Positions 9,324 through 55,657 of a stretch of 64,000 nt of DNA are shown piece after piece. The first letter of the stretch is position 1. Each line of letters begins with the position of its first letter. Source of the DNA: a phage; NCBI GenBank assembly GCA_026066175.1, contig GCA_026066175.1_4721.2; one strand, 5' to 3'. The position numbers were made by a program, and so were the translations under genes. The notes beneath the pieces are model-generated. The model made no database searches. It was not told where the DNA came from and saw only the letters and a list, made by a program, of their open reading frames with translations.

Positions 9324-9338
9324 ACAAGACAAACATAA

Positions 9339-9370
9339 CCCTCCTCCAACCCGTAAGGGAAGGAGGAGGG
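9339..9370. terminator. conserved GNRA-capped hairpin element, copy 1 (bidirectional terminator candidate)
   Basis: ccctcctcc-aa-ccc-gtaa-ggg-aa-ggaggaggg with cataa/catatg flanks, between convergent genes (stops at 9323 and 9380). Confidence 0.6.
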
Positions 9371-9379
9371 CATATGCCG

Positions 9380-10285
9380 TCAGGCTACGTATAACGTTAG
9401 ATAACCTTCAATGAGGGTGTTCATTACACTGAGTTGGAGAACGACAGCTTTACTAACATCCGTACGCACCCCGAACGGTAGCGTTTTGAAGTGCTCTGGA
9501 TCCGTAATAACTTTCGCGTTTTGTAGGTTAAGCGATCCTGGTATCGCTGACAATACCCAACGATCGTTAACCGTCAGACCAACGATCTCTTCAGAAAGTC
9601 CTAACTTCAGAGTGTTCATTTCTGCAATCAGGGCTTCTGAATGCGCATCGCCCGATGTTAACGTGTAACCATCGGTTAACGCCGTCAACACCGCATCCGA
9701 TACGAACCAGTTGTACGATACGATTGCACCTGGTAGTTTATCGCTATCCCGGTCGATGATGTAGTTAAGACCCGCCAACATGTTGTTGCGGATGAGGTTG
9801 TTCAGGTCGTTATGACCTGACGTCAACTCAACAAGCAATTGACCGATCCAGACTTGGTTACCGGGTTTCGGTGTTATTACAACCTGTATCGGCTGTTTGG
9901 ATTTGTCCAGATCAGCATCAACGATTTCGGTTTTATTCAGCAGGATGCCGTACGTTGAGGCTAAGACAGGCAATACCTCAGAAACCTTGGTCAGTGTATC
10001 TAAGGTTTCGATTTCTATCGGCCAACGATGTTGCCCACCAGACCAAATACCAAGTTTGCTAAGATCGATACGGTTGTAATAGATGTCGACGGAGTTCACG
10101 AGCCCGGAACCCGGTTGTGGGTGCACGGTTAACATACTGTTGCGTTTGTATCCCGTGCTTTCAGAAGCCTCACCGATAACCAGCTTATCCAGCGTCACAC
10201 CTCGAGCGTCGAAATCGCTATGTTTTCGAATCAGTCGGAAGAGAATCTCCTTTGATTCTAGCCCCAGGATTTCACTGTACTCCAT
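9380..10285 (-). CDS. hypothetical virion-associated protein, paralogue family A
   Basis: 301-aa ORF; shares the LPVLASTYGILL.../...VWIGQL region with 11202..12053 and 12064..12999; SD aagggg upstream. Confidence 0.65.
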   Translation of the reverse strand: MEYSEILGLESKEILFRLIRKHSDFDARGVTLDKLVIGEASESTGYKRNSMLTVHPQPGSGLVNSVDIYYNRIDLSKLGIWSGGQHRWPIEIETLDTLTKVSEVLPVLASTYGILLNKTEIVDADLDKSKQPIQVVITPKPGNQVWIGQLLVELTSGHNDLNNLIRNNMLAGLNYIIDRDSDKLPGAIVSYNWFVSDAVLTALTDGYTLTSGDAHSEALIAEMNTLKLGLSEEIVGLTVNDRWVLSAIPGSLNLQNAKVITDPEHFKTLPFGVRTDVSKAVVLQLSVMNTLIEGYLTLYVA

Positions 10286-10300
10286 TTAACACCCCTTAGG

Positions 10301-11185: not shown

Positions 11186-11201
11186 GTCTTTTCCTATTTA
11201 A

Positions 11202-15497: not shown

Positions 15498-18416
15498 ATG
15501 AACGATATAAATAAAGGGCGCGTCGCCCTCGAACGTCAAATGAGCAATAATGACGTTGCGAAGGCACTCATGAACAAATTTGTCGCTCCTGCTCCGCAGT
15601 CACGTCTTTATAACACACGTGAAGCGGAAGGAGCGAGCGGTCGTTTCGGGTTAGTTGTTCCCGACCAGATGACGATGAACACGGTGACGCGTGCGACCGC
15701 AACAAACGTCGAGGATAATAAAAACATCCTCGAGTTGTTCCCTGAACTTAAACGCGTGATGCAGATCTATGTTGCCGCGTTGACGAACCCTAACGATCTT
15801 AAGACGGTCGAGATGTTCATCGACAGCGAAGATTTCCCCGGCAGAGTCGCAGAAATCGTTCAGCCGATGATCGATACCATCGACACGCATTTTAAGAATA
15901 TCTATAAAATAAAGACGCTTATCCCTCGTATCATCGAAGATGTCTTCTTTATCAAGGGCAGCTATAACTTCGTTGTTCTGCCTGAAAGCACGCTCGATCG
16001 TGCTATTAACGGCAACGGCCAACTGAAACTCGAAGAATACGGATTTAAAAACAATCATTTCGCCAGCTGGGGGCTGCTGGGGAATGACAGCCGTATACGC
16101 AGTCAACATCAGTTACCGACAACGGTTTCGATGGAAGATTATTTTTCAGGCGTTAACGAAACCATCCCGTACGATCCGGTTGTCCGTATCGATAGCATCA
16201 AGTTTACCAACACGATGCTCCGTGATAAAGACGGTAAATTCATTGAAGCGAAGGTCGATATTCCGGATATGGTTACGGTTGTTGATAACCCAGACATCCT
16301 TCGCATGCCGATTTTACACCAACGTCGTGCGTCAACAGCCGTGCAACGTGCATTACGTGCAAACACCTTAGGCGGTAACGGCCTGGTGACGTTATCAGGC
16401 GATCCGACGCAAACCGCGAATCGACGTGAGCTGACACAAGAGCAAGTTAATGAGATCTGGAATAAACTAAACATCCAACGTCATACCAAGGTATCGCCTG
16501 TGTACGCACTAGCAACCCCGGATACCCTTGACCGTCAAAGCGTTGGTCATCCTGGCGTAATGCATGTACCACCTGAGTCATTAGAACCGGTTCATGCGCC
16601 TGGCGATCCAGAGAACCATATCGGTTATCTCGTCCAGCTGGATGAATTCGGTTACCCAGTACGTTTGGTTGAAGATGCTGCGTATTACAAACAGCTGGAA
16701 GGTCGACTGTCGAAGATCACGGCGGATATTGCCGGTACATCAAGCAACGGAATGGCGAGTGAGATGATCGGGGCAGCGAAGAACATGGTTCAAGGTACGT
16801 CGTGTAACCAAGTCGATATGTCAGCGTTTGTCTCGTCGTACGAATCACTGATGCAACGTTATATCGTTGAACGTATCGTTAACGGTTACCTCGGCAGTGC
16901 GGTAGAAATCGGTGCAACGTCGTCGTTCTATCTGTCGATGCTTGCCCGCAGTCTTGCTCACAAGCAAACCCGTGTTTTGTTTATTCCTCGTGAGATGGTG
17001 ACATACATCGCCTACGAATACAACAAATACGGGATTGGACGTTCCTTGCTTGAAAGTACGAAGATGATCTCATCGCAACGCGCGATGCTCATGGTTCAGG
17101 AACTGATGGCGAAAATCAAAAGTTCGTTGAACTATACGACGCTGAGCGTGATGCTCGAAGACACCGATAGAAACCCGGTTGATACCGTTGAGCAGGCATT
17201 GCACAGTTTTGCTCGTGTTTATCAATCTGGTTTCCCGTTGGGTGAAACCAACCCAATGGATATCATCAATGCATACGAACGAAGCTCGATTCGATTGAAG
17301 GTTGAAGGGAACAACCCACGCTTCCCGAAACTGAACACCGACGTTAGCGTTGAACAACGTAACTACCAATCCCCGGATGATGAGCTGATGGATCGTTACC
17401 GTCGTGATCATTTCATGGGTCTGGGTGTTTCTCCAGAGATCGTTGATACGTCCTACCAATCTGAATTCGCGGCGTCGGTGATTACGGCTAACGCGATGCA
17501 AGAGAAACAGTTCACGGTTTGTCGTGAGGTCGTCACGAATGGCTTAACTGATCACATCAAGAAGTATACGGCTTATAGTCCTGTGCTTCTGACGTCGTTA
17601 CGCAATACCGTTCGCGCGAATATGTCAAAGCTCTCTCAAGCGCAGCTGCAACAGCTCTTTGGTAGCGACTTCGAAAACGGTGTTATTCGTAACGTGAACG
17701 CGTATCAGGAGATTGATGATCGATCGGTGACAATGGATCTGGATTACACCAAACCGGAAGTCCAGGAAGTGATTGCTGACGCTTATGTCTCCATGTTCTT
17801 AAACAGCTTGCAGGTACGTTTACCGGATAGCAACGCGCGTCGCCTTGAAGATCAGGTACGTGAATATAATCAGTACAAGGAAGCGATTACAGCACAACTT
17901 GATGATTATTTAACACCGGATTATGTCATGGGTCTGGGTGGGGTCGATGAAACAACCCTGCAGATGATTCGAGCGTGCATCATTGGTACGGCGATGAGGA
18001 CATGGGCGAAAGAAAACAACTTCAATCAGGAGCTGGCCGATCTCTTTAGTCTCGACGATAAGAAGAATGCCGTCCAGGATTGGAAACGTGCATCCATGGA
18101 GCATATTGAAATCATGGGTAAATGCATGGGTGATTTCGCACTCTATATCCAAAACCTGACGAAGCAAATCGAAGAGAAGATGGGCGACCAAGCACAAGAC
18201 GGTAGCGTTTCATCTGACGGCTCATGGTCATCGGATTCCGGTTCGGATAGCGGTTCTTCCGATGATTTCGGTGGTGGTGATGACTTTGGTGGCGACGACG
18301 ATTTCGGAATGGAAGAAACCGAAGAATCCACCGAGGAAACCACTACGGAAGAAACAACCGATGAAACTGGTGATAATGCCGCATCAGAAGACGATACCGC
18401 AGGTGATATTGTCTAA
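15498..18416 (+). CDS. large hypothetical virion protein with acidic DDFGG-repeat C-terminal tail (portal-like size; function unverified)
   Basis: 972-aa ORF; SD aaggag 9 nt before ATG; C-terminus SSDDFGGGDDFGGDDDFGMEETEESTEETTTEETTDE... is low-complexity and acidic. Confidence 0.6.
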   Translation: MNDINKGRVALERQMSNNDVAKALMNKFVAPAPQSRLYNTREAEGASGRFGLVVPDQMTMNTVTRATATNVEDNKNILELFPELKRVMQIYVAALTNPNDLKTVEMFIDSEDFPGRVAEIVQPMIDTIDTHFKNIYKIKTLIPRIIEDVFFIKGSYNFVVLPESTLDRAINGNGQLKLEEYGFKNNHFASWGLLGNDSRIRSQHQLPTTVSMEDYFSGVNETIPYDPVVRIDSIKFTNTMLRDKDGKFIEAKVDIPDMVTVVDNPDILRMPILHQRRASTAVQRALRANTLGGNGLVTLSGDPTQTANRRELTQEQVNEIWNKLNIQRHTKVSPVYALATPDTLDRQSVGHPGVMHVPPESLEPVHAPGDPENHIGYLVQLDEFGYPVRLVEDAAYYKQLEGRLSKITADIAGTSSNGMASEMIGAAKNMVQGTSCNQVDMSAFVSSYESLMQRYIVERIVNGYLGSAVEIGATSSFYLSMLARSLAHKQTRVLFIPREMVTYIAYEYNKYGIGRSLLESTKMISSQRAMLMVQELMAKIKSSLNYTTLSVMLEDTDRNPVDTVEQALHSFARVYQSGFPLGETNPMDIINAYERSSIRLKVEGNNPRFPKLNTDVSVEQRNYQSPDDELMDRYRRDHFMGLGVSPEIVDTSYQSEFAASVITANAMQEKQFTVCREVVTNGLTDHIKKYTAYSPVLLTSLRNTVRANMSKLSQAQLQQLFGSDFENGVIRNVNAYQEIDDRSVTMDLDYTKPEVQEVIADAYVSMFLNSLQVRLPDSNARRLEDQVREYNQYKEAITAQLDDYLTPDYVMGLGGVDETTLQMIRACIIGTAMRTWAKENNFNQELADLFSLDDKKNAVQDWKRASMEHIEIMGKCMGDFALYIQNLTKQIEEKMGDQAQDGSVSSDGSWSSDSGSDSGSSDDFGGGDDFGGDDDFGMEETEESTEETTTEETTDETGDNAASEDDTAGDIV

Positions 18417-18502: not shown

Positions 18503-18778
18503 TTATCTCGAGTTTAACCACGATTCAATTGTGGTGAGGTTGCTTCGCAATACGCGCCAACTAGGGTGTGGTGGGATCACAGCACCTTTGTCGATTACGG
18601 TTAGCTGAGCCTGGTACTTCTGTTTCATACGGGCTACCGTAGCGCTTACCGAAAGGAAAAGCTGGTAACGTTCGTACACCGTCAGTTCATCTTCCCGTCG
18701 AACTGCTCCTGTTGCTAACGTAATTTCGCGTAAGTCCTTTGCGTCCATCGGGACAGTAATGAGTTTATAATGACTCAT
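18503..18778 (-). CDS. small hypothetical protein
   Basis: 91-aa ORF between the hairpin element and the 18799-18820 hairpin. Confidence 0.5.
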   Translation of the reverse strand: MSHYKLITVPMDAKDLREITLATGAVRREDELTVYERYQLFLSVSATVARMKQKYQAQLTVIDKGAVIPPHPSWRVLRSNLTTIESWLNSR

Positions 18779-28045: not shown

Positions 28046-29657
28046 GATGGACCCAAAACAGATAGCCATTAAGATTATTACGTTACTGTTTCGTAATGCA
28101 CAATTGAACCATCCCGATCCCAGTACGATCGAACATGTTAAATCCGTCTTAGATAAAATCGAACCCCCGAAAAACCATCTCACCGTTGATGTGGATAGAG
28201 AGGTTTTCAACAACCTGATGAACACCATTCATTGGATGTTGGAACAACCGTTATCGGAACCTTTCGATAAACAACAGTTGCTACAAAGGATACGTTTAGA
28301 TTGCCTGGAACAAAGCCACGTTTACGAAATTCTCGCCGACGGATTGTACGATATCGAAGACGATGCTCATATCAGTAAGGTCTGTTCGCTTTACTACAAT
28401 GAATTACGTAATCTGATTACCCGTCGTCGTGTATTTGAAACCTTTAAAAACACGTACATGGATATCAGTAACGGCCGCCTTGGGGACAAAGAATTTTTCG
28501 ACGCGATGGCGAATTTGAAACTATCGCTAGATACCATCGAAATGGATACTGAAAACCCCGAAGAAATGTCCTGTATGATTGACGGCTTCATCGCTGATAG
28601 TGAAGACGATATTGAAAAAGTCGAACGTATGTTCGTTAAGGCGATGGAGCGTAACAGTCCTGAAGGGGGATTTGTCACCGGCTGGCAGGGGTTTAATAAA
28701 ATGTTGGGGTCGGTCGGCGTATTACGTCGTGGTACTCTAGGATTGATTGGCGCGATGCAACACCGTAATAAATCAGGGGTGTTATTAAAACTTTTCACCC
28801 ACCTGGCGTTGTACAATAAACCCCATTTCTTTTTTCCGGAGCGCGCAAAGAAAGCCTTATTGATTCATCTCTCAACAGAGAACGAAGTTGAAGAAAACAC
28901 GCTTCAAATCTACAAGAACATGCGAGAACAGGAAACAGGTGAATATGTCGATATTCGTAAGATTGACCCACGTGAAGCTTCACGCTATGTACTGAACGTT
29001 TTCAATAATGCGGGGTTCTCTGTCTGCATGCGTCGTGTTGATGGAATGAGCTATAAACAACTTGCTAACCTTATCGACCATTTTGAACGTATGGGTTATG
29101 AAGTTATGGCTTTGTTCATCGACTATCTAAAAATGTTCTCGTCAGAAGGATTAGATAGGAATGGGCCTACGGGCGCTTGGCTGCAAGAACTCTTCAACAA
29201 AGTACGTAACCTCTGTAGCGTTAAACGTATTTTAGGTATGACCGTACACCAGTTGTCTTCTGATGCGAAGATGCGGGCACGTGATGGTAACGATGAAGAA
29301 TTTGTTGACCAAGTCGCCGGTTTAAGTTACTGGGATGGATGTAAAGGGATTGACCGTGAGATTGACCTTGAGGTAATTGTTGATATCGTTAAGGAACCTG
29401 GCAAACGTCAAAGCTGGCAGGTCTTTGCGCTAGGGAAAGACCGTCAACCGGATAACGGCTCAACAAAACCTGAAGATAAACATTTTGCGATGCCGTTCCA
29501 AACCATCGGGATGCTTCCTGACGATTACGGTAAGAAAGCGGTGTATTGCCGCAAGGTTGGCGGACAACCGGTCTCTGAAGGAGGCAAAGGTCCGTGGAAC
29601 AAGTTTGATGAACATGCCGCACCGAGTAATGAACTACAATTTGATTTAGAATTCTAA
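28046..29657 (+). CDS. hypothetical protein
   Basis: The ATG at 28046 (MDPKQIAIK...) is preceded by aaagga; the upstream in-frame extension from 27963 overlaps the divergent minus-strand gene and lacks an SD. Ends 26 nt before hairpin copy 4. Confidence 0.65.
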
Positions 29658-38636: not shown

Positions 38637-38682
38637 CGCAGATTCCTGTTTGAAAGATAAGATATCACATGATGGTCGACAG

Positions 38683-38716
38683 CATAAAGCCCACCCCGAA
38701 GGGCGGGCTGTTTATG
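38683..38716. terminator. hairpin cataa-agcccaccc-cgaa-gggcgggct-g-tttatg downstream of the 1127-aa gene
   Basis: 9-bp GC-rich stem (one mismatch) plus 5-bp A/T flanks that extend the stem, 9 nt after the stop at 38725; it has the same CATAA...TTATG flanks as the conserved element family. Confidence 0.5.
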
Positions 38717-38724: not shown

Positions 38725-41700
38725 TTACTTGTAGGCACCGCAATGGGCTTTGATGAGGAAAAGCACCGCTTGCATCGGTTTATTGAACTGTTGCCATAAC
38801 GTTAATGCCGGATGGAACAGCCAATCTTCCAGGCCGAGAACAATACCGTAGTTAACGACATTATTAACATCGTTCTCAACGTTGAGTTCGCTATCCAGGA
38901 ATTTATCGATTGAACGCAGGGTCTGCATGGCGTTGTCAGCAATAAGCCAAGCTTCATGCGCTTCACGAGCCGCACGCAGCACTGCCTCCAGTTCGCTGAT
39001 AGTAGCTACCGGTAATTCCTCACTGGTGAGGTCGTCAGAAACCGTAAACTGGCGATTGATACCGGTGTAGATCCACTGCATCAGTTTCGCTGCTTCCTCG
39101 TTCGGGTTGTTACGCGTTGTCGCATAGGTCGCGCTCATCTTCACGATATGCGTTTCACCAAGATACGCTTTGGACCCAACGCCTTTACGATCGCTGTCTT
39201 TCCACGGTTGTACGGTAGCGACCATGAGCTTATCCCATTTCTGAATAGGAATACGCTTCAGACCAACAACCGATCCGGCCGATGTTTCGGACTGGTTGCT
39301 CTTCCGCACTTCGCTGAGCTCGCGATCGATAGCAACGATTAATTCACGCGTCATGTTACCAAGCATTTTGATTTCACCCAACGCAGCGATGAGCTTCTTC
39401 ACATCGGTAATAGGTTCACCACCGATGGTAAGATGACGGATGAAACGTTTCAGAATAATCCGTTCTGCTGCTGGGTTACCACGACGCGCTTTAGCCAACG
39501 CTTGCTGTGTTTCGGCGAACAGCTTATCCCATGGAGCCGTAGCGGCGGTATAGTAACGGTGGTTGGTTTCAATCCAGTTACCGATACGGTTGACCGCACT
39601 CTTAACGGTATCCATGAACCCTTCCATCGCAATTTCGGTGGCTTCGACGTTACCCTGGAAGTTATCAGGACCGATCTCACGCGCCGCCACCAGAATACCT
39701 TCCACCGCACTCACCGCATGCCGACCGATAGCCAGATTTCGCTGCGCTTCTTCAGCACGCTCAACGAATTCTACAACCGCAGGATCGTCAACGATTTCCG
39801 CCTCAGCAACAACACGAGTACCAGCATCGCCTTCCAGTGTCTCGATGGTGACAACCGGATCGTTTTCACCAGCAACATCCTGGTACTCTTCCTGTTTGAG
39901 ATCGCCGTTATCAGCCGCTGCGACAGCGGTGAGTATACGGACGGTAACATCACCGAGTTCTTTCGCAGCGAATCCGTAGACGGTACATGCTGTTGTCGCA
40001 AAGTTCATCAGTGTGCGCGTGCGTTTAACGATGTAACCAACATCGTAATCGTTGCCGCTCTTATCGATGTCGCGGATTAACCGTTCAGCTGTCTCCTGAA
40101 GCTGTGTAGCTGCTTTCAGAAGGTCTTCGTTAAACAGTTTCGTTGACGCATCGATCAGCATATCAACACTAACGTTAGACGGTACGGCATCATCCTGCTG
40201 TTTCATGGCGCTAAGTTCGTCACGGAACTTACGAATACCGTCTAAAGCGGCGTCGGCGCTATGTCCGAACGCGGCCACGCCAGACATTGTTGTTGCTGTC
40301 AGCATGTCCGTATCAGCGTTTGGACTTTCGCCTTCTTTAAGATCCTTCAGCTGGTCGAAGAACTTACGGGATGCTTCAGCGATACGTTTGCTGTCTTTGA
40401 CTGCGTTTACGATTTTATCAACCGATTTAGCATCGTTCGCAAGCAGCGTATCGAGTTTGTTCCATTCGACGTTGACTTTCTTTTCATCCGAAGTATTACT
40501 CGGCGGAGGAAGCAGTTTCATCACCGGTGCTGTGCGTTGTTCTTTGGTCAGCTTGTTGGCCTTCCCTTCGATTTTTTTCTTATTAACACCAAAGAGATTT
40601 TTCAAACGCGCCACGAGGGCTTTTAAGAACTTCGCGACCGCTTCGTAAACCGATTTCAGAATCTGTTTAAAGCGACCCGGCTGCTTTTCCCCGTCTTCCA
40701 GATTAAGATCGCTGTTCAGCGCGACATCAAGCTGTTTGTACGATTCCATGATGTATTCGTCTTTGATTTCAGGACGAATCTCGAAGCTTTCCATCGGACC
40801 TTCAGCCGGACGGAATTCCATTTTCAGTTCGCCTTGCAGAGTAGGGTCGACAATGGCGATCGCTTCACCCTGACCATCAGCGTTAAAGCGTTCAGCGTAA
40901 CGAGTACGGCGAACAATAACACTCTTATCCCCATCAAGACGACGTACCACCATGGTGCCAGGAATGTATGGTTGTTCTGTTTCAATGACGGTTACATCTG
41001 CCTCACCTTCGCCGAGAATAACCGATGCACGCTGTTCAACAACAGGAACATCTAATACGCCACGTGCTTCCAGCTCTTGATGAATTTCGAACGACTCTTG
41101 TTTCAGATCTTCATCTTCTTCGTTTTCGTCTTCATCACCGTCACCTTTGGTGTCTTCATTACCCTCGGTGGTTTTGGTGTCGGTAGCATCAGCGTCGGCG
41201 TCTGTGTTGGTAGGTTCTTCGGACGCGGGTTCGGTGGTGCTATCCTCGGTGGACGTTTCGTCGGCGTTATCGACGTCAACATCACCTTGCAGCTCCGTTT
41301 CTTGAGCAACGGCGTCGGCTTTCTGCTCACCAGTATTGCCGTCATTAGCGTCGACAACAGGTTGTTCGTCAGCGACGGTATCTTCAACCTTTTCTACTTT
41401 CTCCACAACACGTTTAATCACGGTGACTTTGATGGGTTCTTCCGTCGTTTTGGTTTCTGGCGTCGCCTCGGCTACCTCAGCTGCTGTTTCAGCAACAGGT
41501 TCTGCTTTTTCCGGTTCGACGACATTGCCTTTAACACCTTCGGTGGTTTCTGCAGGTTGCGTCGCCTGTTCGATTTGTGCCGGATTGGTTGGATCGATGG
41601 CGTTAGCCGCATCCTGAATCTTGTTCTTCAGGTTGTCACGGTCAGCGTTAACGGTCGGATCATTGGTCACTTTCGGTGCCGGTGTTTCGGTCGGTGCGTT

Positions 41701-42108
41701 TGCTGGATATGGGTTCTTCGGCTCTTCACCAGGTGCGGTCGGTACGGCGATCAGCACGAACGGCTGCACGTCGTTACCGTCTTCCATGGTAACGCCACCG
41801 TTGCTCGGTGTGAAACGAATTCGTAAACTACCATCGATAGGACGGGTCACAATAACAGCACGTACGACATCCTCGCCGTTCTCATCCGTGCTACGAATTA
41901 CGCGAACGGCATCATCAACAGTAGCCCCTTCCTCGAGCGTATCTGATTCGATCGTCGCTTCGATGCTGTCTGGCCGTGCCGCTGTAGGTAATGCGATCAC
42001 CTGCTCTTCTTTATCAGTAGAAAGCGTTGCTTTGACTTCGATCGGTGTATCGCCGCTTTCCAGGTTAAGATGCGACTTACGCATCAAATCAGCTAACGAT
42101 TTTTTCAT
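38725..42108 (-). CDS. large virion protein with long acidic low-complexity region and internal duplication
   Basis: 1127-aa ORF with SD gagga. Residues ~130-330 are T/E/D/A/P-rich (...TEDSTTEPASEEPTNTDADADATDTKTTEGNEDTKGDGDEDENEEDED...). Two related segments (VVRAVIVTRPIDGSLRIRFTPSNGG and MVVRRLDGDKSVIVRRTRYAERFNADG) flank the acidic region. Confidence 0.65.
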   Translation of the reverse strand: MKKSLADLMRKSHLNLESGDTPIEVKATLSTDKEEQVIALPTAARPDSIEATIESDTLEEGATVDDAVRVIRSTDENGEDVVRAVIVTRPIDGSLRIRFTPSNGGVTMEDGNDVQPFVLIAVPTAPGEEPKNPYPANAPTETPAPKVTNDPTVNADRDNLKNKIQDAANAIDPTNPAQIEQATQPAETTEGVKGNVVEPEKAEPVAETAAEVAEATPETKTTEEPIKVTVIKRVVEKVEKVEDTVADEQPVVDANDGNTGEQKADAVAQETELQGDVDVDNADETSTEDSTTEPASEEPTNTDADADATDTKTTEGNEDTKGDGDEDENEEDEDLKQESFEIHQELEARGVLDVPVVEQRASVILGEGEADVTVIETEQPYIPGTMVVRRLDGDKSVIVRRTRYAERFNADGQGEAIAIVDPTLQGELKMEFRPAEGPMESFEIRPEIKDEYIMESYKQLDVALNSDLNLEDGEKQPGRFKQILKSVYEAVAKFLKALVARLKNLFGVNKKKIEGKANKLTKEQRTAPVMKLLPPPSNTSDEKKVNVEWNKLDTLLANDAKSVDKIVNAVKDSKRIAEASRKFFDQLKDLKEGESPNADTDMLTATTMSGVAAFGHSADAALDGIRKFRDELSAMKQQDDAVPSNVSVDMLIDASTKLFNEDLLKAATQLQETAERLIRDIDKSGNDYDVGYIVKRTRTLMNFATTACTVYGFAAKELGDVTVRILTAVAAADNGDLKQEEYQDVAGENDPVVTIETLEGDAGTRVVAEAEIVDDPAVVEFVERAEEAQRNLAIGRHAVSAVEGILVAAREIGPDNFQGNVEATEIAMEGFMDTVKSAVNRIGNWIETNHRYYTAATAPWDKLFAETQQALAKARRGNPAAERIILKRFIRHLTIGGEPITDVKKLIAALGEIKMLGNMTRELIVAIDRELSEVRKSNQSETSAGSVVGLKRIPIQKWDKLMVATVQPWKDSDRKGVGSKAYLGETHIVKMSATYATTRNNPNEEAAKLMQWIYTGINRQFTVSDDLTSEELPVATISELEAVLRAAREAHEAWLIADNAMQTLRSIDKFLDSELNVENDVNNVVNYGIVLGLEDWLFHPALTLWQQFNKPMQAVLFLIKAHCGAYK

Positions 42109-42123: not shown

Positions 42124-43227
42124 TTAAAAGTAATATTTCAGCGCCTCGCGAGAGACGTCAAGCATAGCCGCCGTTGAGTTCGTGAAGAACTCGGCATAGC
42201 CCACAAGCGGCACCTTGATCCACGCGGTATACGCTGTAAGGTATCGAGAAAGGGCTACCATAGCATCATCAGAAGCTGTAATGGATAACTGACCTTGTTG
42301 ACGATACACATCGTTCAGTTTTGCTTGCAGGTTCCCTGCGATCTCAAGTAATTCGTTGGCGTACTTTTTACGATGGTACGTAATAAGCAGATCAACACCG
42401 GTATTTACCGATTCGAGTAAAACGCCAATCTGCTCCAACGACGGCATGGTTACAACCATATCACGCTCAACAGACACGACGTCCTGAACTTCAAATCGTG
42501 CTGATTGAATCGCGAGAGATTGTTGGATTGCTCCAGAACCCGTTGCGGTAACCTGATCAAGTCGTAGCATCCGGTTACCTAACAACGTCGTGTTAACCAG
42601 CCGCGATTCATTCAACGCACTGTACACCTTGTTCAACAGCGTGTGTGCATCACGATTAATCACATCGATTAATGCGGTATCCGTCTGTTTTAAGATGATG
42701 TCAAGCGCTCTGTCTAACGTGTTTGCGAACTGTTTGAAGTCATCACGGAACGACGTTGACAACAGGTATTCTGCGATCTTCAGGTTTTGTTTGTATAACG
42801 TGTTTCCGGTGGTGAAGTCGAACCCGAAACTGTTTCCATAACGCAAATGTGGTGCGAGCGTGGGTGAGGCTTCAAAACTTTGCGCGATGGGTTTATGTCC
42901 AACCGCTTTCGTGTATTGACGACGGATATTACTCAGCTCGATTTGCAACGCACGACTGCGGTCGATATACCGTGCGATGAAAGCAGTGATATTCCGCAAC
43001 GTTGTCCAAATCGCATCGATGATCGCTTTGATGATTTTCATCGCAAGCTGGTTGTATGATTCCAGGGTAAGGAGATCAGCGCTTTCTGTAGCATAACCGG
43101 TTGCCAGAGCGCCGCCCGCTTGCTGATAAATAAGCTGATGGATTTGTCGTTGTGTTGCCGTCTCAGGTAGAGGTAAGGTTTTTAACAAGCTTAAGGCTTG
43201 GATTTGTCCATCATTGGTCTGCAGCAT
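42124..43227 (-). CDS. virion protein, paralogue family C (head-internal/ejection-type protein candidate)
   Basis: The ATG at 43227 (MLQTNDGQ...) has SD gagga with an 8-nt spacer; the track start at 43290 would overlap the upstream gene by 80 nt. Shares the central A..A(L)..W....I helix region with 43211..48721 genes. Confidence 0.55.
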   Translation of the reverse strand: MLQTNDGQIQALSLLKTLPLPETATQRQIHQLIYQQAGGALATGYATESADLLTLESYNQLAMKIIKAIIDAIWTTLRNITAFIARYIDRSRALQIELSNIRRQYTKAVGHKPIAQSFEASPTLAPHLRYGNSFGFDFTTGNTLYKQNLKIAEYLLSTSFRDDFKQFANTLDRALDIILKQTDTALIDVINRDAHTLLNKVYSALNESRLVNTTLLGNRMLRLDQVTATGSGAIQQSLAIQSARFEVQDVVSVERDMVVTMPSLEQIGVLLESVNTGVDLLITYHRKKYANELLEIAGNLQAKLNDVYRQQGQLSITASDDAMVALSRYLTAYTAWIKVPLVGYAEFFTNSTAAMLDVSREALKYYF

Positions 43228-44512
43228 TGCGGGTTTCCTCAAGTTCGAGATGTGCATCAAGGTAATCGTTAAGACCATCGATGACGTCACAGACCGTTAA
43301 CAGGAATCGAGCAAAAGCAACGGCCTGGAAGCCAACGACATTACGAGCAATGCTAACACGTTGCACAATGGCGGTTGAAGCCGCTTGGTCATCGTAGATC
43401 TGATGCAACAAACGTTCGTAGGGCTGAATCCATTCATCTTGATCAGCGAGGCTTGCCTCAAGACAACGTTTAAATTCCAATTGACGTAGCGTTGACCATA
43501 AGGTGCTTAATGCGCCGATGATGGCGTTGGTTCCATCAAGAACATCGTTCAAGGGCAGGAAACGGAATCCGTCCTTCGCTGACTGGAAAGGAATGGCTTC
43601 CCATACAACGCTAAACTGTGCGCCAGTATAATCATCGACGTTCAGTACTTTTAACTGCGAAGCGCCAACCGGTGCGTTTATGATGACGTCATTGGTTTCA
43701 GTGTTCTCCAACGGCTTTTCACACAACGCGTCGTTGATCGCCTTAAGGATGTTTTCCCAACATGCCTCATTTTCAGCCGCGATGTTATCTTTGTTCTCCA
43801 ACACCGGTGCTTTTAATAACCGCATCAGTAACGGATCAAGCTGACGATGCCATGCCGCCAGTATCCCGGTATTTGTCATGATGTTTTCTGCGGTCTGTTG
43901 TAAATCCGCAACGCTGCTTACCGCACCGCCTCTTGGATGGAGATATCGCCAGTTATACGGGAAGTTCTCCCAGAAGGCATTATCTTCGTTAACCGTATAT
44001 GCAGGAAGATTTTTCAGTTTTACGGCTTTCTTCAGCAACGGTTTTACTTGACGCACAAAACGACGATAACTGCGGTTGCAAATATCAATGGCGTAGCGAT
44101 ACAACTCGTTCATGTAAAGCCATAACGCTCGGGTTGCCTCTTTCGCGGTTTTGTCAAAACTTTCCATGTTAAGACTCATCCCACCTGAGGTTTCCTCTTC
44201 CATCCCATCGATGATCTGATTGGGATCCATTCCCATCCCAGCCGCTGCGGTTGAAGCGATATGTTTGATGGTATTAATATCACGTTCTTCAACTTCGGTC
44301 ATGTTAGGGACAATATCTAACCGGAGTTTGTTTAATGTTTGAAGGTGTTGTTCACCTTCCTTCATGACGGTGTTCGTTTCATCGAGTGAGCGAAGCTGAT
44401 TTTCGATATTACCGACATCGAGGATGTTGCCAGCGACACCGAATGATTCTACAGGTTCATCATCTATCCCTTGAAACAACGCGGTCATGGGTTGTTGCAA
44501 CACGTTTTCCAT
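43211..44512 (-). CDS. virion protein, paralogue family C
   Basis: 433-aa ORF with SD aggag; DINTIKHIASTAAAGMGMDPNQ...TAKEATRALWLYMNEL aligns with DVALIRQIASTSAANLGMSDED...KERAAQALYAVWVTI in 44666..45958. Confidence 0.65.
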   Translation of the reverse strand: MENVLQQPMTALFQGIDDEPVESFGVAGNILDVGNIENQLRSLDETNTVMKEGEQHLQTLNKLRLDIVPNMTEVEERDINTIKHIASTAAAGMGMDPNQIIDGMEEETSGGMSLNMESFDKTAKEATRALWLYMNELYRYAIDICNRSYRRFVRQVKPLLKKAVKLKNLPAYTVNEDNAFWENFPYNWRYLHPRGGAVSSVADLQQTAENIMTNTGILAAWHRQLDPLLMRLLKAPVLENKDNIAAENEACWENILKAINDALCEKPLENTETNDVIINAPVGASQLKVLNVDDYTGAQFSVVWEAIPFQSAKDGFRFLPLNDVLDGTNAIIGALSTLWSTLRQLEFKRCLEASLADQDEWIQPYERLLHQIYDDQAASTAIVQRVSIARNVVGFQAVAFARFLLTVCDVIDGLNDYLDAHLELEETRNAADQ

Positions 44513-44665: not shown

Positions 44666-45958
44666 TTATTTTGCTTTCTCGGTTACCGCGTTGAAGTATT
44701 TCGCTGCAGCAAATACCGCCTCCGCATACTGACGGACAGAGGCACGGAGGATCTTGGTTCCTAATACCGAGCTTAAACGAGCCATTTCTGTTACAGCCGC
44801 GATATAAGGACGTACGGTTTCACGATCGGCCTCAGGTAACTTGTCGAGCATTTCGCCCCACTTCGTTTTGATTTTCATTCCGTTGAGTTTAGCATCTCGT
44901 CCTACAGTGCTTGCCAAACTTTCAACTTTATGCAAATATGTCGGCTCCACCCTATGGAATGCCTTCAGATATGCCGTCAATGCGCTTTTCAGCTCATTCC
45001 CATCGTGGAAAATATTCACATTTTCGATATTATCTGTTACGGTGTCAACAACTTCGATATGAACATCCTTCACCAAAGCACATGCTTTAATGACATCTTT
45101 CTCTTTTTCTAACGCATCCAGCCCTTTAACGACATATTGTTTTCCGCCGCTTTCTGGAAGTCTGAACGCTCTCAGCGCAGCTTTAGTGGTCTGAAGATAC
45201 TTATCTAGAACACTATCGAGCGTTGTTAAATCAGTTAGGACATTGATGTCGTAGTTGATGTCACCGATCATAGTAAATAGGAAATCTGACGTCGCCGCAC
45301 TTGCAGCTAATTGTTCGATATGTTTGCTAACGGATGTTGCATTAACCGATTTTGCGTTCGGGAACATATTAACCATATTCCCGGTAGGCTTCTCTAGCTG
45401 CTTGATCTGACGTTCCCCTTTATTGACTTCGGATGCGATTTTGGTGATCTCAGCATAAGCCAGAACGAGATTCTTGAAAAGCGTCTGGAGCAACTTAAAC
45501 AATTGTTCAGCAATATTCGCGATGGTGACCCAGACCGCATACAGTGCTTGCGCTGCACGTTCCTTGAAGCCTTCCAGCACGATAGCTTGGCCTTCGACTA
45601 ACTTATCATTAGCCTGGAACATGTCTTCATCAGACATACCCAGGTTAGCTGCCGATGTTGATGCGATTTGGCGGATAAGCGCAACGTCGCTGGCGCGGGC
45701 TTCTGTGATCGTTGATGCGATTACGTAGGCGGTATCTTCCAACGTTGCTGATGTCCGTACAGCGATTTCAGCCAGTTCGCTGTTCTCGTCGATGCTGTCG
45801 TCGGTATGTCGAATCACCAACTCAACTTCATCTTCCTCAATTTCTGCGTTGGGGTCTTGTTGCTCGGGTGAAATCGATGCAAGAACATCTTCAGCGCTGA
45901 GTAGTGCGAGTTCAAAAGCGTTTTTATTGATGTTATCAAAAAGAGAAATACGGGCCAT
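44666..45958 (-). CDS. virion protein, paralogue family C
   Basis: 430-aa ORF with SD aaggaa; acidic N-terminal region (PEQQDPNAEIEEDEVELV...) followed by the conserved family core. Confidence 0.65.
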   Translation of the reverse strand: MARISLFDNINKNAFELALLSAEDVLASISPEQQDPNAEIEEDEVELVIRHTDDSIDENSELAEIAVRTSATLEDTAYVIASTITEARASDVALIRQIASTSAANLGMSDEDMFQANDKLVEGQAIVLEGFKERAAQALYAVWVTIANIAEQLFKLLQTLFKNLVLAYAEITKIASEVNKGERQIKQLEKPTGNMVNMFPNAKSVNATSVSKHIEQLAASAATSDFLFTMIGDINYDINVLTDLTTLDSVLDKYLQTTKAALRAFRLPESGGKQYVVKGLDALEKEKDVIKACALVKDVHIEVVDTVTDNIENVNIFHDGNELKSALTAYLKAFHRVEPTYLHKVESLASTVGRDAKLNGMKIKTKWGEMLDKLPEADRETVRPYIAAVTEMARLSSVLGTKILRASVRQYAEAVFAAAKYFNAVTEKAK

Positions 45959-47335: not shown

Positions 47336-47367
47336 CCCTCTCCCAACCCGGAAGGGAAGGGAGAGGG
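47336..47367. terminator. conserved GNRA-capped hairpin element, copy 7
   Basis: gcataaga-ccctctccc-aa-ccc-ggaa-ggg-aa-gggagaggg-aatatg, 23 nt downstream of the stop of 47390..48721. Confidence 0.6.
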
Positions 47368-47389: not shown

Positions 47390-48721
47390 TTATTTCTGTG
47401 CTGCGTCAGCCGGTTTTTCAGCCGCCTGGCCGCTGTACTCTTTCAGCATTTTAGCAACGCCGTCCAGTACTGCGTTACCCGCCTGAACACCGTACTTCAT
47501 CAGGCTAACCTGCGGGTTGATGTAGCAAGAACGTGCGTCTTTCAGTGCAGACAGCACAGTTTTAACACGCTGTTTCTCTTGAGCAGAAACTTCGCCTTTC
47601 TTAGCCAGTTCAGCTTCCATATCGTCGCCGAATTTAACAGCGTCTTTGAAGCCCTGGGATTTCTTACCGATGTTACCTTTCGCAGCCAGCAGTTTATCGG
47701 CCAGCGCTTCAACGCTGTTGATCACCGCAGCCATCTGGTTCGGGGACAGTACATCGGCTTCCTGTTCCATCACGGTGATTGCGTTATTGCCGCGTTCCCA
47801 GGTCACTTTACCGTCGGTGGTTTTGAATCCCCAACCGTTCGGACCTTTCACATCAGCGATCGCAGGCGCGTTCAGTTTGTCGGTGTACTCAGTATGTGAT
47901 TTAGACTTAACGAGTTCAACGAATTTATCCGCACGATCGTCAGCCGCCTTCATTGCTTTCTCGAAGGTATCTGCGATTTTGCTTGATGCACCAGCGATAT
48001 CGATATCGCCAATATAACCGGTAACAGTGGTGCCCAGTTTAACTTTCGCGTTCTTCGGAGAGCCTTTACGTTTGGCGATCATTTCTTTCAGTTTAGCCGC
48101 ACGTGCTTTCAGTTTGGTTGCACCGTCGAAGATACGATCGATGAACTTCACGAAGTTGTCCCAGGTGGATTTCAGGAAGTTCTTAATTGCAGTCCACAGT
48201 TTCTGCCACCATTTCTGTTCTTCCAGGAAGATCATGTTGGTTGCATCATAACGGGAAGCGGAACCGCCGAAGCTTTCGAAGGAAGGCATGGTTTCCGGCA
48301 GTTTGAAGCCGATAGTACCACACAGACGTTTCAGATTACGCATGTGTTCTTGCGCGGTCTGTGCAGACATACCACCGTCTTTCAGATAGCTTTCGGTCGC
48401 AACAACGGTTTCCGTCATTTCGTCCATGGCTTCGTCCATGGCTTCAGCGGTTTCGTCGTCTTTTGCGATTTCGATAACAACAGCATCAACCTGCTCGATG
48501 TCACCACGGACTTCGATAGCCAGTTCGGTTTCAGCAGCGGTGTCTTCAGCGATTTCAGCACGTTCGGTCAGTTCAGCCACAACGGTTTCATCGCCTGCAG
48601 CAGCATCGGCTGCCGGTTCTGCTTCAACGGTTGCCGCAGCTTCCGGATCGATCTCAGCAGCCAGTTGAACCAGCTGTGCGTTAGATGGATTTGCGACAAG
48701 ACGATCAAAAATAGAAGGCAT
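47390..48721 (-). CDS. abundant virion protein, paralogue family C, with acidic AxE-rich N-terminal region (propeptide-like)
   Basis: 443-aa ORF with SD taaagga; strongly optimised codon usage; N-terminal ~100 aa are acidic and alanine-rich with many A-x-E triplets (AAEIDPEAAATVEAEPAADAAAGDETVVAELTERAEIAEDTAAETELAIE...). Confidence 0.65.
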   Translation of the reverse strand: MPSIFDRLVANPSNAQLVQLAAEIDPEAAATVEAEPAADAAAGDETVVAELTERAEIAEDTAAETELAIEVRGDIEQVDAVVIEIAKDDETAEAMDEAMDEMTETVVATESYLKDGGMSAQTAQEHMRNLKRLCGTIGFKLPETMPSFESFGGSASRYDATNMIFLEEQKWWQKLWTAIKNFLKSTWDNFVKFIDRIFDGATKLKARAAKLKEMIAKRKGSPKNAKVKLGTTVTGYIGDIDIAGASSKIADTFEKAMKAADDRADKFVELVKSKSHTEYTDKLNAPAIADVKGPNGWGFKTTDGKVTWERGNNAITVMEQEADVLSPNQMAAVINSVEALADKLLAAKGNIGKKSQGFKDAVKFGDDMEAELAKKGEVSAQEKQRVKTVLSALKDARSCYINPQVSLMKYGVQAGNAVLDGVAKMLKEYSGQAAEKPADAAQK

Positions 48722-52602: not shown

Positions 52603-55596
52603 ATGAGCGTAACCAACAAAGATCTTGCCGAACAGCTCAATCGCTATATGCTCTCACCGATTGAGATGCAAGCTGTTGCAAGTGATATGATTCGCCTGGC
52701 CTCCGACGGAGAATTAACTTTGGTTGACCCAAGCTGTCCGTTTGTGTATCTGTTGGAAGTTGCCACCGCCACAGCCGCCAACCAGAATGCGCGTGATGAG
52801 TCACGGGTGCGCGAACTGTATCCGAAGTTAGCAACGACCTGGAGCCAACTCTACCGTTGGATGTACGATGAGTCTTACGTGGGCCGGTTCGCAACACCCG
52901 GCAAAACCGAAATCATCTATTCATTAGGTTACCAGGAAATCCTTGATCGCGCTGTTGAAATCCCAAGCACCGCCGCATCGAACGATTTAAGTCGTTCTTA
53001 TAGCCGTAAGTTGGTGATTCCACGTACCACGGTGTTTACGGTTGCCGGTATGGATTTTGGGGTGCATTACCCGATTGAGATTCAGGTACAAGCGCACGAT
53101 CAAATACGTGCTGTATATAACACGGATACCATCAGCCCGTTACAAACCCTGGAAAGCAACCAGGTTGAATACGGTGTTGTTCGTGTAAAAGCAGGTAAAG
53201 TGCTGGTGATGCGTATTCCGTTATACCAGTTTAAGACGTTAACGAAAGATGTGCCGTTTAACAGCGTTCACGGGATGAACAGCAGTATCACCTTTGAGGA
53301 TCAATTCTATCATTGTCGTGCGTATATGTCATCGAACAACGATACCTGGACGGAAATCGCAACGACACACAGCCAGCAGATTTACGATCCATTAACACCA
53401 ACCATCGCATTACAGGTTGAAGGCAATACCCTGAACTGGCGCGTACCTGAAATCTACCTTTCTCAAGGGACGATGGATAAAAGCACGATACGGCTTGAAG
53501 TTCTCACCACGAAAGGTAAGATAAGTGTCGATCCGTCCGATTACGATGTAACGGATTGGAAAGATAACTACATCGATCTGTCGCCAAAAGCAGAGCAGAA
53601 ATACAGTGCGCCGTTAAGCGCATTCAACATTAAGGGTATTTACAGCGAAGGTGCGTTGTCAGGTGGGCGATCGGCGCTGACTTTTGAAGAACAGCGCGAA
53701 CGCGTTATGGCGGGTGTGAACAAAACCAAGGTACCGATTACAGGAACGCAGGTGGAACTGGTGTTGCAAGACGCCGGTTACGGGATGGTCACCACGATCG
53801 ATAACGTCACGAATCGTTCGTTCCTGGCAACGCGAGATCTTCCGCAGCTGAGCGACAGCGTACCGCAGGCAGGTTCGTTGATGGGATCTTTCTATACATC
53901 GGCTGCTGCGTTGGTGAAAAGCAAATTCGTTGCGGATAATGGCGATCGTATTACGATTAAACCGGATTGCCTGTACCGGGATAGTAACGGTAACATCACG
54001 TTAATGACAGATGACGAGATCGACCGTATTAATGCCGGGAACTCCGACGTCAAACTGAACGCGGTTAATAATGCGATGGTCATGTATAGCCCGTTCCATT
54101 ACGTGTTGGACGCAACAAGTGATTTTGATATCCATGCTTATTACTTAGACGCACCGAAAATTGGTACGCAAGCGTTTCTTGATGCGAACGAAACCATCCC
54201 ATTAACGGCGATGGTAACCGGTTATCGCCTCGATCGTAATGCTGAAGGATACCGTTTAAATCTTATCGTTGAAGGTAACGACGCGTGGAAAGCGCTTGAC
54301 GATAAGAACGTGCACGTGCAGCTTGCGTTCAACCCGCGCGGTGAAGGTGATTATGCAACGATGGTTGCATCGCCAACCACGGATGAACAGGGTCGTCGTT
54401 TGTTTACGTTTGATATCACGACGAACTACGACTTCACACGGGTGTTGGCTGATGACTCTACAGCGTACGAGCCGTATATCGCATTGACGTCTTTCTCGAT
54501 GTATGAATCCACACCACGCGATTACTGGGCGTCATTACAACAGTACCTGGAAATCTTCCATGTGGTGACGGATTACGCGCCGGAGGACGTTGATGGTATT
54601 CTGCATAGTGCTTCCGACAATTACCTGGTTAAGAAACTGACGCTTCAGAATGGTTATTGCTTCTATCGTGAACGCCTCACCGCAACCTTCGGTTACGATT
54701 TGGACGGTCTCTGGATGCGCTCAAGAACGGTGGCTTCGGAAATCACGTATAAGCGTTACACCGAGAACATTCCGTGGGTATACGAAGAAGATATTCCAGC
54801 TACGGATGAAACAGGTTCGGTGATCATCGAACAAGGTGATGGTGGTACGTTGTCAGTGAAATACCTGCACCGTAAAGGGGATCCGAAATTAAACAGTGAT
54901 GGTAGCCAAGCGTATCGTTATTTGAAAGGCGACATCATGAGAGATAATTACGGGAATCCTATTCCGGTCGATGAACGTGAGGTTCTGCGTAATCTGGATA
55001 TGTTCTTTATTGACGCGTCGTATCTCCTGGCGAACGATACCGACGTTGCAGATTACCGTAACGCGATCCCCACACAACTGATTGAATGGATCCAAAACGA
55101 TATCAGTACCTTCAGAACGTTCTGTTACGAAGAGACCGAGATCTCACTGTATCCGAAACAATCGTTGGGTTACGTCGATGTTATCGTTGAAAACGGGTTG
55201 GAAACCACACTGCCTGCTGCTTTGTCGTTCAACGTGACGTTGTATTTACCGGCGAAGCAATACGCTGACCTGGATTTACGTCAGGTACTACAATCGATGG
55301 TTTCTAAAGTCATCAATGAGTGCTTAACGTCGCGTACGGTAGCAAAAGCAGAGATGATTGCAATGATCCGTGAAGAAGGTGGGGAAGATATCCTGAACGT
55401 TGAAATCGATGATTTCGGTCCAGGTAGGAACCTCAGTGTGTATACGGCGAAGAACGACGGTGTTCGTTGTGCGGTGAAGAAAGAGCTTTACGTGAAAGCA
55501 GATGGTATCTTATCTGTACGTGAAGCGATTGACGTGAGCTTTGTAAAACACGCACAAAGCAACAGTTCTGCATTAGCACAGGGTCTTCGTATCTAA
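52603..55596 (+). CDS. large hypothetical virion protein
   Basis: 997-aa ORF tightly coupled to the upstream gene; ends 20 nt before hairpin copy 8. Confidence 0.65.
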   Translation: MSVTNKDLAEQLNRYMLSPIEMQAVASDMIRLASDGELTLVDPSCPFVYLLEVATATAANQNARDESRVRELYPKLATTWSQLYRWMYDESYVGRFATPGKTEIIYSLGYQEILDRAVEIPSTAASNDLSRSYSRKLVIPRTTVFTVAGMDFGVHYPIEIQVQAHDQIRAVYNTDTISPLQTLESNQVEYGVVRVKAGKVLVMRIPLYQFKTLTKDVPFNSVHGMNSSITFEDQFYHCRAYMSSNNDTWTEIATTHSQQIYDPLTPTIALQVEGNTLNWRVPEIYLSQGTMDKSTIRLEVLTTKGKISVDPSDYDVTDWKDNYIDLSPKAEQKYSAPLSAFNIKGIYSEGALSGGRSALTFEEQRERVMAGVNKTKVPITGTQVELVLQDAGYGMVTTIDNVTNRSFLATRDLPQLSDSVPQAGSLMGSFYTSAAALVKSKFVADNGDRITIKPDCLYRDSNGNITLMTDDEIDRINAGNSDVKLNAVNNAMVMYSPFHYVLDATSDFDIHAYYLDAPKIGTQAFLDANETIPLTAMVTGYRLDRNAEGYRLNLIVEGNDAWKALDDKNVHVQLAFNPRGEGDYATMVASPTTDEQGRRLFTFDITTNYDFTRVLADDSTAYEPYIALTSFSMYESTPRDYWASLQQYLEIFHVVTDYAPEDVDGILHSASDNYLVKKLTLQNGYCFYRERLTATFGYDLDGLWMRSRTVASEITYKRYTENIPWVYEEDIPATDETGSVIIEQGDGGTLSVKYLHRKGDPKLNSDGSQAYRYLKGDIMRDNYGNPIPVDEREVLRNLDMFFIDASYLLANDTDVADYRNAIPTQLIEWIQNDISTFRTFCYEETEISLYPKQSLGYVDVIVENGLETTLPAALSFNVTLYLPAKQYADLDLRQVLQSMVSKVINECLTSRTVAKAEMIAMIREEGGEDILNVEIDDFGPGRNLSVYTAKNDGVRCAVKKELYVKADGILSVREAIDVSFVKHAQSNSSALAQGLRI

Positions 55597-55616
55597 AACA
55601 AATAGCGCAAACATAA

Positions 55617-55648
55617 CCCTCCTCCAACCCGTAAGGGAAGGAGGAGGG
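55617..55648. terminator. conserved GNRA-capped hairpin element, copy 8
   Basis: acataa-ccctcctcc-aa-ccc-gtaa-ggg-aa-ggaggaggg-aatatg between convergent stops (55596 and 55658); identical to copy 1 over ~40 nt. Confidence 0.6.
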
Positions 55649-55657
55649 AATATGCTG

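Follow-up and report, generated by a model that had tools for sequence, protein, structure and literature searches.

RNA 3′ ends have been mapped in the jumbo phage phiKZ by Oxford Nanopore Technologies (ONT)-cappable-seq, which defined 61 terminator regions sharing the motif 5′-BCCYCCCCHWWDGGGRRGGBYTTATKYYGT-3′ (PMC10914365; Putzeys et al. 2024, Microlife), most members of which were classed as intrinsic by ARNold. In phage 201phi2-1, a motif designated A, which resembles that of phiKZ, is present at 59 terminators, combinations of motifs A and B produce elongated hairpins, and 15 terminators located between convergent genes are bidirectional; furthermore, eight terminators chosen for motif variety displayed strong termination in a two-reporter trap in uninfected Pseudomonas, i.e., with the host RNA polymerase (PMC11512511). 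Here, we describe a family of eight hairpins within a 64,000-nucleotide (nt) stretch of phage DNA (contig GCA_026066175.1_4721.2 of GenBank assembly GCA_026066175.1; hereafter, the window) which, by analogy with these two phages, are likely to represent RNA-level transcription terminators, or at least transcript 3′-end-defining hairpins, of a conserved jumbo phage class.

A preliminary description of the window, made from its sequence alone, had reported eight near-identical, GC-rich hairpins marking the ends of minus-strand genes. All eight were found at the positions and with the architecture reported, and all are intergenic. A covariance model (R1, from alignment A1), built solely from these eight copies, retrieved them alone from the 64-kb window with scores of at least 56 bits, the next match being an unrelated hairpin at 12.5 bits, while the pattern CCCTCCTCCNNCCCNNNNGGGNNGGAGGAGGG yielded four exact matches in the window against 0.00 expected from 100 shuffles. 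The copies, with their scores in bits, are as follows:

9339..9370, no strand assigned: copy 1, candidate bidirectional terminator between convergent genes 8046..9323(+) and 9380..10285(-); 67.2 bits
18452..18485, no strand assigned: copy 2, between convergent genes 15498..18416(+) and 18503..18778(-); 58.3 bits
24886..24915, minus strand: copy 3, 99 nt 3′ of the major capsid gene 25015..27237(-); degenerate on the plus strand
29683..29714, no strand assigned: copy 4, between convergent genes 27963/28046..29657(+) and 29732..30058(-); 63.6 bits
33384..33414, minus strand: copy 5, 5 nt 3′ of 33420..34787(-), among co-directional minus-strand genes; 60.7 bits
44627..44658, minus strand: copy 6, 7 nt 3′ of 44666..45958(-), in the orientation opposite to that of the other seven; 71.9 bits on the minus strand
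47336..47367, minus strand: copy 7, 22 nt 3′ of 47390..48721(-), among co-directional minus-strand genes; 66.0 bits
55617..55648, no strand assigned: copy 8, between convergent genes 52603..55596(+) and 55658..(-); 66.7 bits

Occurrence of the motif at a similar density inside coding regions, which had been named beforehand as a result that would speak against a transcript-end signal, was not seen, with none of the eight copies (0/8) lying in coding DNA in a window of which ~96% is open reading frame (ORF). The distances to the preceding stop codon (5, 7, 9, 9, 17, 17, and 22 nt, and 99 nt for copy 3) agree with the 6 to 25 nt (~100 nt in one case) given in the preliminary description, and its statements that a copy accompanies every plus-to-minus convergent junction of the window (4/4) and that certain pairs are identical well beyond the core (copies 1 and 8 over 40 nt; copies 5 and 7 over 39 nt) were likewise borne out.

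RNAalifold and pair counting revealed a two-tier fold composed of a 9- to 10-base-pair (bp) outer stem, a 2x2 internal loop, a 3-bp inner stem, and a 4-nt loop, which, in the mRNA sense of the minus-strand genes, reads CCCUCCUCC-UU-CCC-UU(C/A)C-GGG-UU-GGAGGAGGG, followed by (Y)UUAUG(Y)(Y)GU. One arm is entirely composed of pyrimidines and the other of purines, so that an identical stem is formed from either strand. The initial characterization of the hairpins as GNRA capped requires revision, as GNRA is the plus-strand reading, whereas the loop in minus-strand mRNA is UUCC or UUAC, with copy 6 alone presenting GGAA in its mRNA; nor is a GNRA loop conserved, since relatives carry GTCA, ATCA, AACA, AGCA, and GATGA at this position. 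Core folding energies range from -21 to -26 kcal/mol, compared with a mean of -6.2 kcal/mol (standard deviation, 3.2) for sliding 40-nt windows, which places the cores among the most stable segments of the window. When flanking sequence is included, the minus-strand RNA of copy 1 extends to -35.8 kcal/mol and that of copy 2, which has a 10-bp outer stem (CCTTCTCCCC/GGGGAGAAGG), reaches -43.3 kcal/mol.

Conservation of the pairing was assessed in a set of 53 distinct copies taken from four Goslar-like genomes, namely, the window, Escherichia phage vB_EcoM_Goslar (Goslar), and two IMG/VR contigs found by motif scan, designated A (3300011560_000001; 237.5 kb) and B (3300045988_173921; 182.9 kb). 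Watson-Crick pairs occupied 98.9% of the pair cells and double-sided changes were evident in 8 of the 12 pairs, with slid controls attaining 59 to 69%, and the covariation check proposed in the preliminary description thus favored a genuine stem. Every nonterminal mispair is a C.A combination on the plus strand, corresponding to a U.G wobble in minus-strand RNA. The terminal pair of copy 5 is likewise C.A in the plus-strand reading and U.G in the mRNA, while copy 3 forms, through G-U pairs, a continuous 13-bp stem in minus-strand RNA at -25.5 kcal/mol versus -17.9 kcal/mol for the plus strand. Because the mispairs are wobbles in minus-strand RNA and copy 3 folds better on that strand, selection appears to act on the RNA in the mRNA sense, and as the mispairs represent only ~4 independent events, this evidence is suggestive rather than decisive. 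A search of Rfam 15 at the gathering threshold gave no match (0) across the whole window.

The relationship to the phiKZ terminators was apparent upon application of R1 to positions 100 to 150 kb of the phiKZ genome, where the model retrieved terminators with scores of up to 29.5 bits (E value, 7e-8), the alignment encompassing the stem and both flanks. One such match, AACAACATAATG-CCCTCCC-ATTAC-GGGAGGG-CTTATGACGTTA, lies at the convergent gp129/gp130 junction, and another, CCCTCCC-TTCG-GGGAGGG-CTTTATGTTGT, lies ~90 nt past the major head gene, paralleling copy 3. The two families have in common a C/U-rich and a G/A-rich arm, the tail (Y)TTATKYYGT, the upstream mirror flank AAC-N-CATAA, and a location at gene ends and convergent junctions, as well as their origin in nucleus-forming jumbo phages with RNA polymerases of their own. 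They differ in that the phiKZ elements, the only ones of the two families with mapped 3′ ends, possess a 7- to 9-bp stem with a 4- to 5-nt loop placed directly on top, whereas the window copies possess a 9- to 10-bp stem, a 2x2 AA/AA (UU/UU in RNA) internal loop, and a CCC-N4-GGG helix. The published phiKZ consensus itself matched the window at a single site, with three mismatches and zero matches expected:

38679..38708, minus strand: simple one-tier member of the terminator class, GCCCGCCC-TTCG-GGGTGGGC-TTTATGCTGT, 3′ of gene 38725..42108(-)

This site alone carries the direct 4-nt HWWD cap, which is absent from the eight copies owing to the 14-nt insert AA-CCC-N4-GGG-AA. Its folding energy is -31.6 kcal/mol with flanks, and its equivalent in Goslar is an annotated putative terminator (55080-55101).

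Comparison with 201phi2-1, based on the published description, revealed similarity in motif A, in the elongated hairpins, in the bidirectional sites, and in a class of which some members are trap validated, while the genus and host are different and elongation is achieved there by a second flanking motif rather than by apical insertion. Bacterial bidirectional intrinsic terminators also place a GC-rich hairpin, usable from both strands, between convergent genes, and the minus-sense tails of copies 1, 8, and 3 are similarly U-rich; the window copies, in contrast, lack an uninterrupted U-/A-tract pair, bear the specific tail UUAUGYYGU, and have near-identical stems across loci. A canonical terminator, with which the family had been compared at the outset, is located at 5760-5786 on the minus strand (GGGUGGGU-UCU-ACCCACCC, then UUCCUUCUUUUUAUUUUU); it is indeed the one Rho-independent example of the window and does not belong to the TTATG-tailed class. 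Tuerk et al. (1988) reportedly described extra-stable intercistronic C(UUCG)G hairpins that are reused at many gene ends of the large lytic phage T4; in those, it is the tetraloop that is conserved, whereas in the window family the loop is variable and the stem and tail are conserved.

The tails were scored as the best match to the nine-position motif TTATKYYGT beside the stem, for which the background mode is 6/9 and at least 8/9 is reached by 0.7% of background positions. In the four co-directional copies, the tail scores 9, 9, 8, and 8 of 9 on the mRNA side and 6/9 on the opposite side: copy 3 (TTATGCTGT; RNA form, UUAUUAUGCUGUU) attains 9/9 on the mRNA side only, copy 5 (TTATGCCGT; RNA form, UCUUAUGCCGUC) attains 9/9 against 6/9 on its other side, copy 7 (TTATGCTGC) attains 8/9 against 6/9, and copy 6 (ATATGCCGT) attains 8/9 on the mRNA side despite its inverted hairpin. 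Copies 1 and 8, both at convergent junctions, each score 7/9 in the minus sense and 8/9 in the plus sense, as would be expected for two-way use. On the mRNA side, seven copies have TATG near the stem (within 6 nt in six of them and at +6 to +9 in copy 2), copy 4 being the exception. The view that most copies lack a U-tract needs to be qualified: it does not apply to copies 1, 8, and 3, which have 6, 6, and 5 U residues, respectively, in the first 8 nt in the mRNA sense, and it holds for the others.

Among the records of the phage collection, only Goslar (237 kb; Goslarvirus) matched the window, with 86 to 89% identity over the length of the latter; megablast of window positions 40000 to 64000 against Goslar gave 92% coverage in five pieces. 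Goslar belongs to the phiKZ-like, nucleus-forming jumbo phages, and its record lists several split RNA polymerase β/β′ subunit homologues. The 32-nt core of copy 1 is identical in Goslar and is labelled "putative transcriptional terminator" in that record, in which such labels derive from ARNold; in total, three Goslar copies were independently annotated as terminators by this program. A genome-wide count, as had been suggested in the preliminary description, identified ~19 strong members in Goslar, which, when tabulated against the annotation, are located at ~12 of 20 plus-to-minus convergent junctions versus ~7 of ~225 co-directional junctions, and several of the remaining convergent junctions harbor other hairpins with the same flanks. 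In view of these counts and of the same-flank hairpins, the terminator class seems to favor the two-tier form for bidirectional use. In the circularly permuted Goslar record, the start and end of which are arbitrary, one family hairpin extends across both ends (L002, 1-35; L006, 37235-37287), the first 35 nt repeating the last hairpin, such that the record boundary cuts through the terminator that separates Goslar_00249(+) from Goslar_00001(-).

For the public viral contigs, CCAACCCNNNNGGGAAGG proved too loose as a search pattern, and the final pattern included additional purine and pyrimidine flanks. With this pattern, multiple copies were found only in Goslar (14 matches), contig A (15 matches), and contig B (13 matches), and as judged from these contigs, the two-tier pattern is a trait of the Goslarvirus lineage. 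Separately, ~55 AT-rich, unrelated IMG/VR viral contigs each contain a single near-identical two-tier hairpin, CCCCCC-AA-CCC-AAAA-GGG-AA-GGGGGG (e.g., L053, 8552-8577; L104, 949-974; L049, 5636-5661), in which an A-run upstream of the hairpin constitutes a U-run past the stem on the opposite strand. These hairpins look like canonical terminators, and the two-tier architecture would appear to recur outside the jumbo phages.

The most probable interpretation is, therefore, that the eight elements belong to the terminator class of phiKZ and 201phi2-1, in which a 5′ arm rich in C and U pairs with a 3′ arm rich in G and A to give a very stable hairpin that is followed, in the direction of transcription, by (Y)UUAUG(Y)(Y)GU(U), and in which, in the Goslar lineage, the simple tetraloop would have been replaced by the 2x2 internal loop and a CCC-N4-GGG mini-helix. 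The nascent RNA would fold into this hairpin, the polymerase would stop or release within the UUAUG tail, and the remaining hairpin would protect the 3′ end; by analogy with phiKZ and 201phi2-1, RNA 3′ ends are thus expected to form at the hairpins. A copy with a TATG tail on both sides would stop transcription from both directions, and the occupancy of every convergent junction in the window may be explained by the fact that the same stem from both strands and the two-sided TATG permit a bidirectional stop. The copies located at convergent junctions in the window and in Goslar fit such bidirectional termination. The proposal that the hairpins are dedicated, conserved-sequence transcript-end signals was supported, as they share architecture and flanking motif with the mapped phiKZ terminators and as R1 retrieves the latter. 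The accompanying contention that they act in this way "rather than" as generic intrinsic terminators was too strong, given the ARNold calls in phiKZ and for three Goslar copies and the activity of 201phi2-1 terminators in the uninfected host. Elements of this kind have been described for phiKZ and 201phi2-1 and are partly annotated in Goslar; the window family is a lineage-specific, two-tier member.

Several points weigh against this assignment. The tail of copy 2 is weak (6/9), with a T12 run 14 nt downstream in the minus sense, and that of copy 4 scores 5/9 in the minus sense, where TATG is absent and a T10 run follows 11 nt downstream, and 6/9 in the plus sense, where it reads TTATG-A-CCGT. 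U-tracts (at least 5 U in 8 nt) are present in three of the eight minus-sense tails and in none of the four plus-sense tails at convergent junctions (0/4); because few tails are canonical U-tracts, efficiency as classical intrinsic terminators is uncertain, especially for plus-strand genes. A generic terminator/promoter scan returned sites at chance level and left the family unflagged, an outcome which carries no weight for these hairpins, as the tool employed requires an uninterrupted stem and does not model the internal loop. No transcript-end mapping was found in the literature on Goslar-like phages. Finally, the phiKZ ONT-cappable-seq 3′ ends, taken alone, do not separate termination from exonuclease trimming to a stable hairpin.

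This last point relates directly to the possibility, which we regard as unlikely, that the hairpins function mainly as 3′-end protectors, read-through transcripts being trimmed by 3′-5′ exonucleases back to the hairpin, which would in turn set mRNA stability. The high stability of the cores (-21 to -26 kcal/mol) and the weak or absent U-tracts, especially on the plus-sense side, would be in accordance with such a role, and under either model the same 3′ ends would have been mapped in phiKZ (PMC10914365). However, the eight 201phi2-1 terminators of varied motif were strong in the two-reporter trap (PMC11512511), and the sense-linked tail TTATGYYGT would be without an obvious role in exonuclease protection, which is, moreover, not mutually exclusive with termination. 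It is less probable still that the elements are terminator-promoter modules, in which the TATG would be the late start motif of the non-virion RNA polymerase (T-3 A T G+1 in phiKZ), such that transcription stops and then restarts. TATG is present within 12 nt of the stem on seven of the eight minus-sense sides, against a background of 1.9%, the genes downstream are virion structural and presumably late, and the phiKZ late consensus comprises only TATG at the start site, the source of its specificity being acknowledged as open (PMC7618050, PMC7598289). Yet at convergent junctions TATG is found on both sides, where a promoter could yield no more than antisense transcription of the opposing gene; p119L, the phiKZ late promoter studied in most detail, has TATG with no upstream hairpin; and the YYGT past TATG is part of the published terminator motif rather than of the promoter consensus (PMC10914365).

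A further reading, that of a selfish or neutral dispersed palindromic repeat without a transcriptional role (like repetitive extragenic palindromic [REP] sequences or miniature inverted-repeat transposable elements [MITEs], or a cruciform or protein-binding DNA site), would account for the near-identical scattered copies, their concerted evolution, and the orientation flips as products of DNA-level recombination, but is hardly credible in light of the remaining evidence. All eight loci are syntenic in Goslar, and in contigs A and B where sequence is available, with no presence/absence polymorphism; each copy is situated just past a stop codon; only in the mRNA strand do the mispairs read as G-U; and the tail follows the direction of transcription, with the same flanks being found at mapped phiKZ terminators. 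Two additional candidates were rejected. A Shine-Dalgarno sequence with start codon (GGAGGAGGG-N2-4-ATG) was discounted as the flanking ATGs open ORFs of 3 to 42 amino acids (aa) of inconsistent length, some of which are antisense to genes. For the phage RNA-binding protein ChmC as a reader there was no support, since the enhanced cross-linking and immunoprecipitation (eCLIP) study, performed in PhiPA3, placed its binding near start codons and identified no motif.

Within the preferred interpretation as terminators, the conservation of the tail TTATGYYGT(T) across genera is the sole hint that a phage polymerase or an RNA-binding factor might recognize the element. The tail and its mirror (AAC-N-CATAA ... 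TTATG-YY-GTT) are kept from phiKZ to Goslar despite almost no shared nucleotide similarity, and they may be more than a substitute for a U-tract. It is conceivable, if rather doubtful, that they are read by the phage transcription machinery, either as a U-tract-free release signal for sigma-less polymerases or as a module in which hairpin and TATG couple termination to late reinitiation; in either case, uniformity of the copies would be maintained via gene conversion.

Comparison of orthologous copies indicated that the hairpins do not evolve independently of one another. The outer stems are ~97% conserved between the window and Goslar, against 86 to 89% overall, whereas the loops vary (GTAA, GGAA, GTGA, GTCA, ATCA, and GATGA) and their letters are genome specific rather than locus specific. 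The window carries GGAA at five loci at which the orthologues have GTAA, GTGA, or GTCA, and contig A carries ATCA at both copy 1 and copy 8. The stems of copy 2 are identical in Goslar while its loop is GGAA in the window versus GATGA in Goslar, and the orthologous loops of copy 7 are GGAA, GTGA, GTCA, and TTAC. Copies 1 and 8 cross-match over 67 nt with 97% identity, even between genomes, as is the case for window copy 8 and the orthologue of copy 1 in Goslar. On the basis of this cross-match and of the genome-specific loop letters, we propose that the copies evolve in concert through short-patch gene conversion.

An inversion of the central 14 nt separates orthologues at four of the eight loci, i.e., copy 3 (the central part of which is inverted relative to Goslar and contig B), copy 4 (in contig B), copy 6 (in the window), and copy 7 (in contig A). 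The 32 nt of copy 6 are the exact reverse complement of copy 4, while its orthologues in Goslar, contig A, and contig B are oriented the other way, with a different outer stem, CCTTCCTCC/GGAGGAAGG, and a loop which also differs from that of the window. Copy 6 was most likely overwritten by a paralogue that annealed in the opposite sense, as the palindromic arms permit. In situ inversion with compensatory mutation was considered and rejected, since exact reverse complementarity to copy 4 renders paralogue replacement the more parsimonious explanation. In light of the inversions and the variable loops, function would appear to be independent of core orientation and loop sequence, and a loop-specific reader is unlikely. 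The concerted evolution of these hairpins and the inversion of their central part between orthologues are, as far as the sequences indicate, the new elements of the present analysis.

Differences in gene content are evident around copy 5. Contigs A and B possess an extra ORF of ~243 aa between the orthologue of 33420..34787 and copy 5 (L134 in contig A; L151, 12823-13554[-], in contig B), and because this ORF ends 6 nt before the hairpin, the copy 5 terminator appears to lie at the boundary of a gained or lost gene. The opposite flank of copy 5 differs as well, the window having an ORF of 134 aa where Goslar has the 63-aa Goslar_00047. A conserved intergenic motif, (T-rich)TTCACGnc-TA(C/T)ATTAC-CTnnGTGA, was observed at 24827-24840(-) and 33324-33337(-), where, in the mRNA sense, it follows copies 3 and 5 by ~45 nt and precedes the next gene, and occurs at ~14 sites in Goslar, all on the minus strand (e.g., 43266, 49732, 86705, 113797, 142800, and 172978). 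The exact 14-mer is not enriched in the window (5 matches versus 3.4 expected at three mismatches). The motif looks like a candidate phage promoter. Within it, TATATTAC may resemble the AT-rich core of phiKZ early promoters.

Two stem-loops (44538-44561 and 44569-44592) are positioned between copy 6 and gene 43211..44512, in the 5′ leader of the latter. Pairing of the former (GGTGG..CCACC) is kept in Goslar (GGCGG..CCGCC) through a compensatory T-A to C-G change, while in place of the latter Goslar and contigs A and B carry an unrelated hairpin-forming sequence, which is annotated as a terminator in Goslar (60927-60948). A perfect 12-bp hairpin (CCTAGGGGAAGG-N7-CCTTCCCCTAGG) is present at 59279-59309(-), 14 nt past the stop codon of 59323..62118(-), with no TTATG directly after the stem. 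It is followed by GGAG-N7-ATG at ~59262, and for this reason the next gene probably starts at ~59262 rather than at the GTG assigned by the ORF finder at 59320. This gene, 55658-59320(-), encodes ~1200 aa in the window versus 930 aa for Goslar_00064 (72031-74823), consistent with a gain or loss of ~0.8 kb in a gene of the virion region.

The hairpins provide a terminator map for Goslar-like phages, with eight sites in the window and ~19 in Goslar, for which the GenBank record annotates only three. As compact (~60-nt) candidate bidirectional terminators, the two-tier hairpins may be of use in E. coli synthetic biology, and their concerted evolution and repeated core inversion constitute a modest but clear-cut case of short-patch recombination between palindromes scattered in a phage genome. 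The current picture of jumbo phage transcription is unchanged by these results. The phiKZ terminator motif, inclusive of its tail, extends to a distant genus with a different host, a reach which argues that the tail is functional, and the map would delimit the transcription units of the model E. coli nucleus-forming phage.

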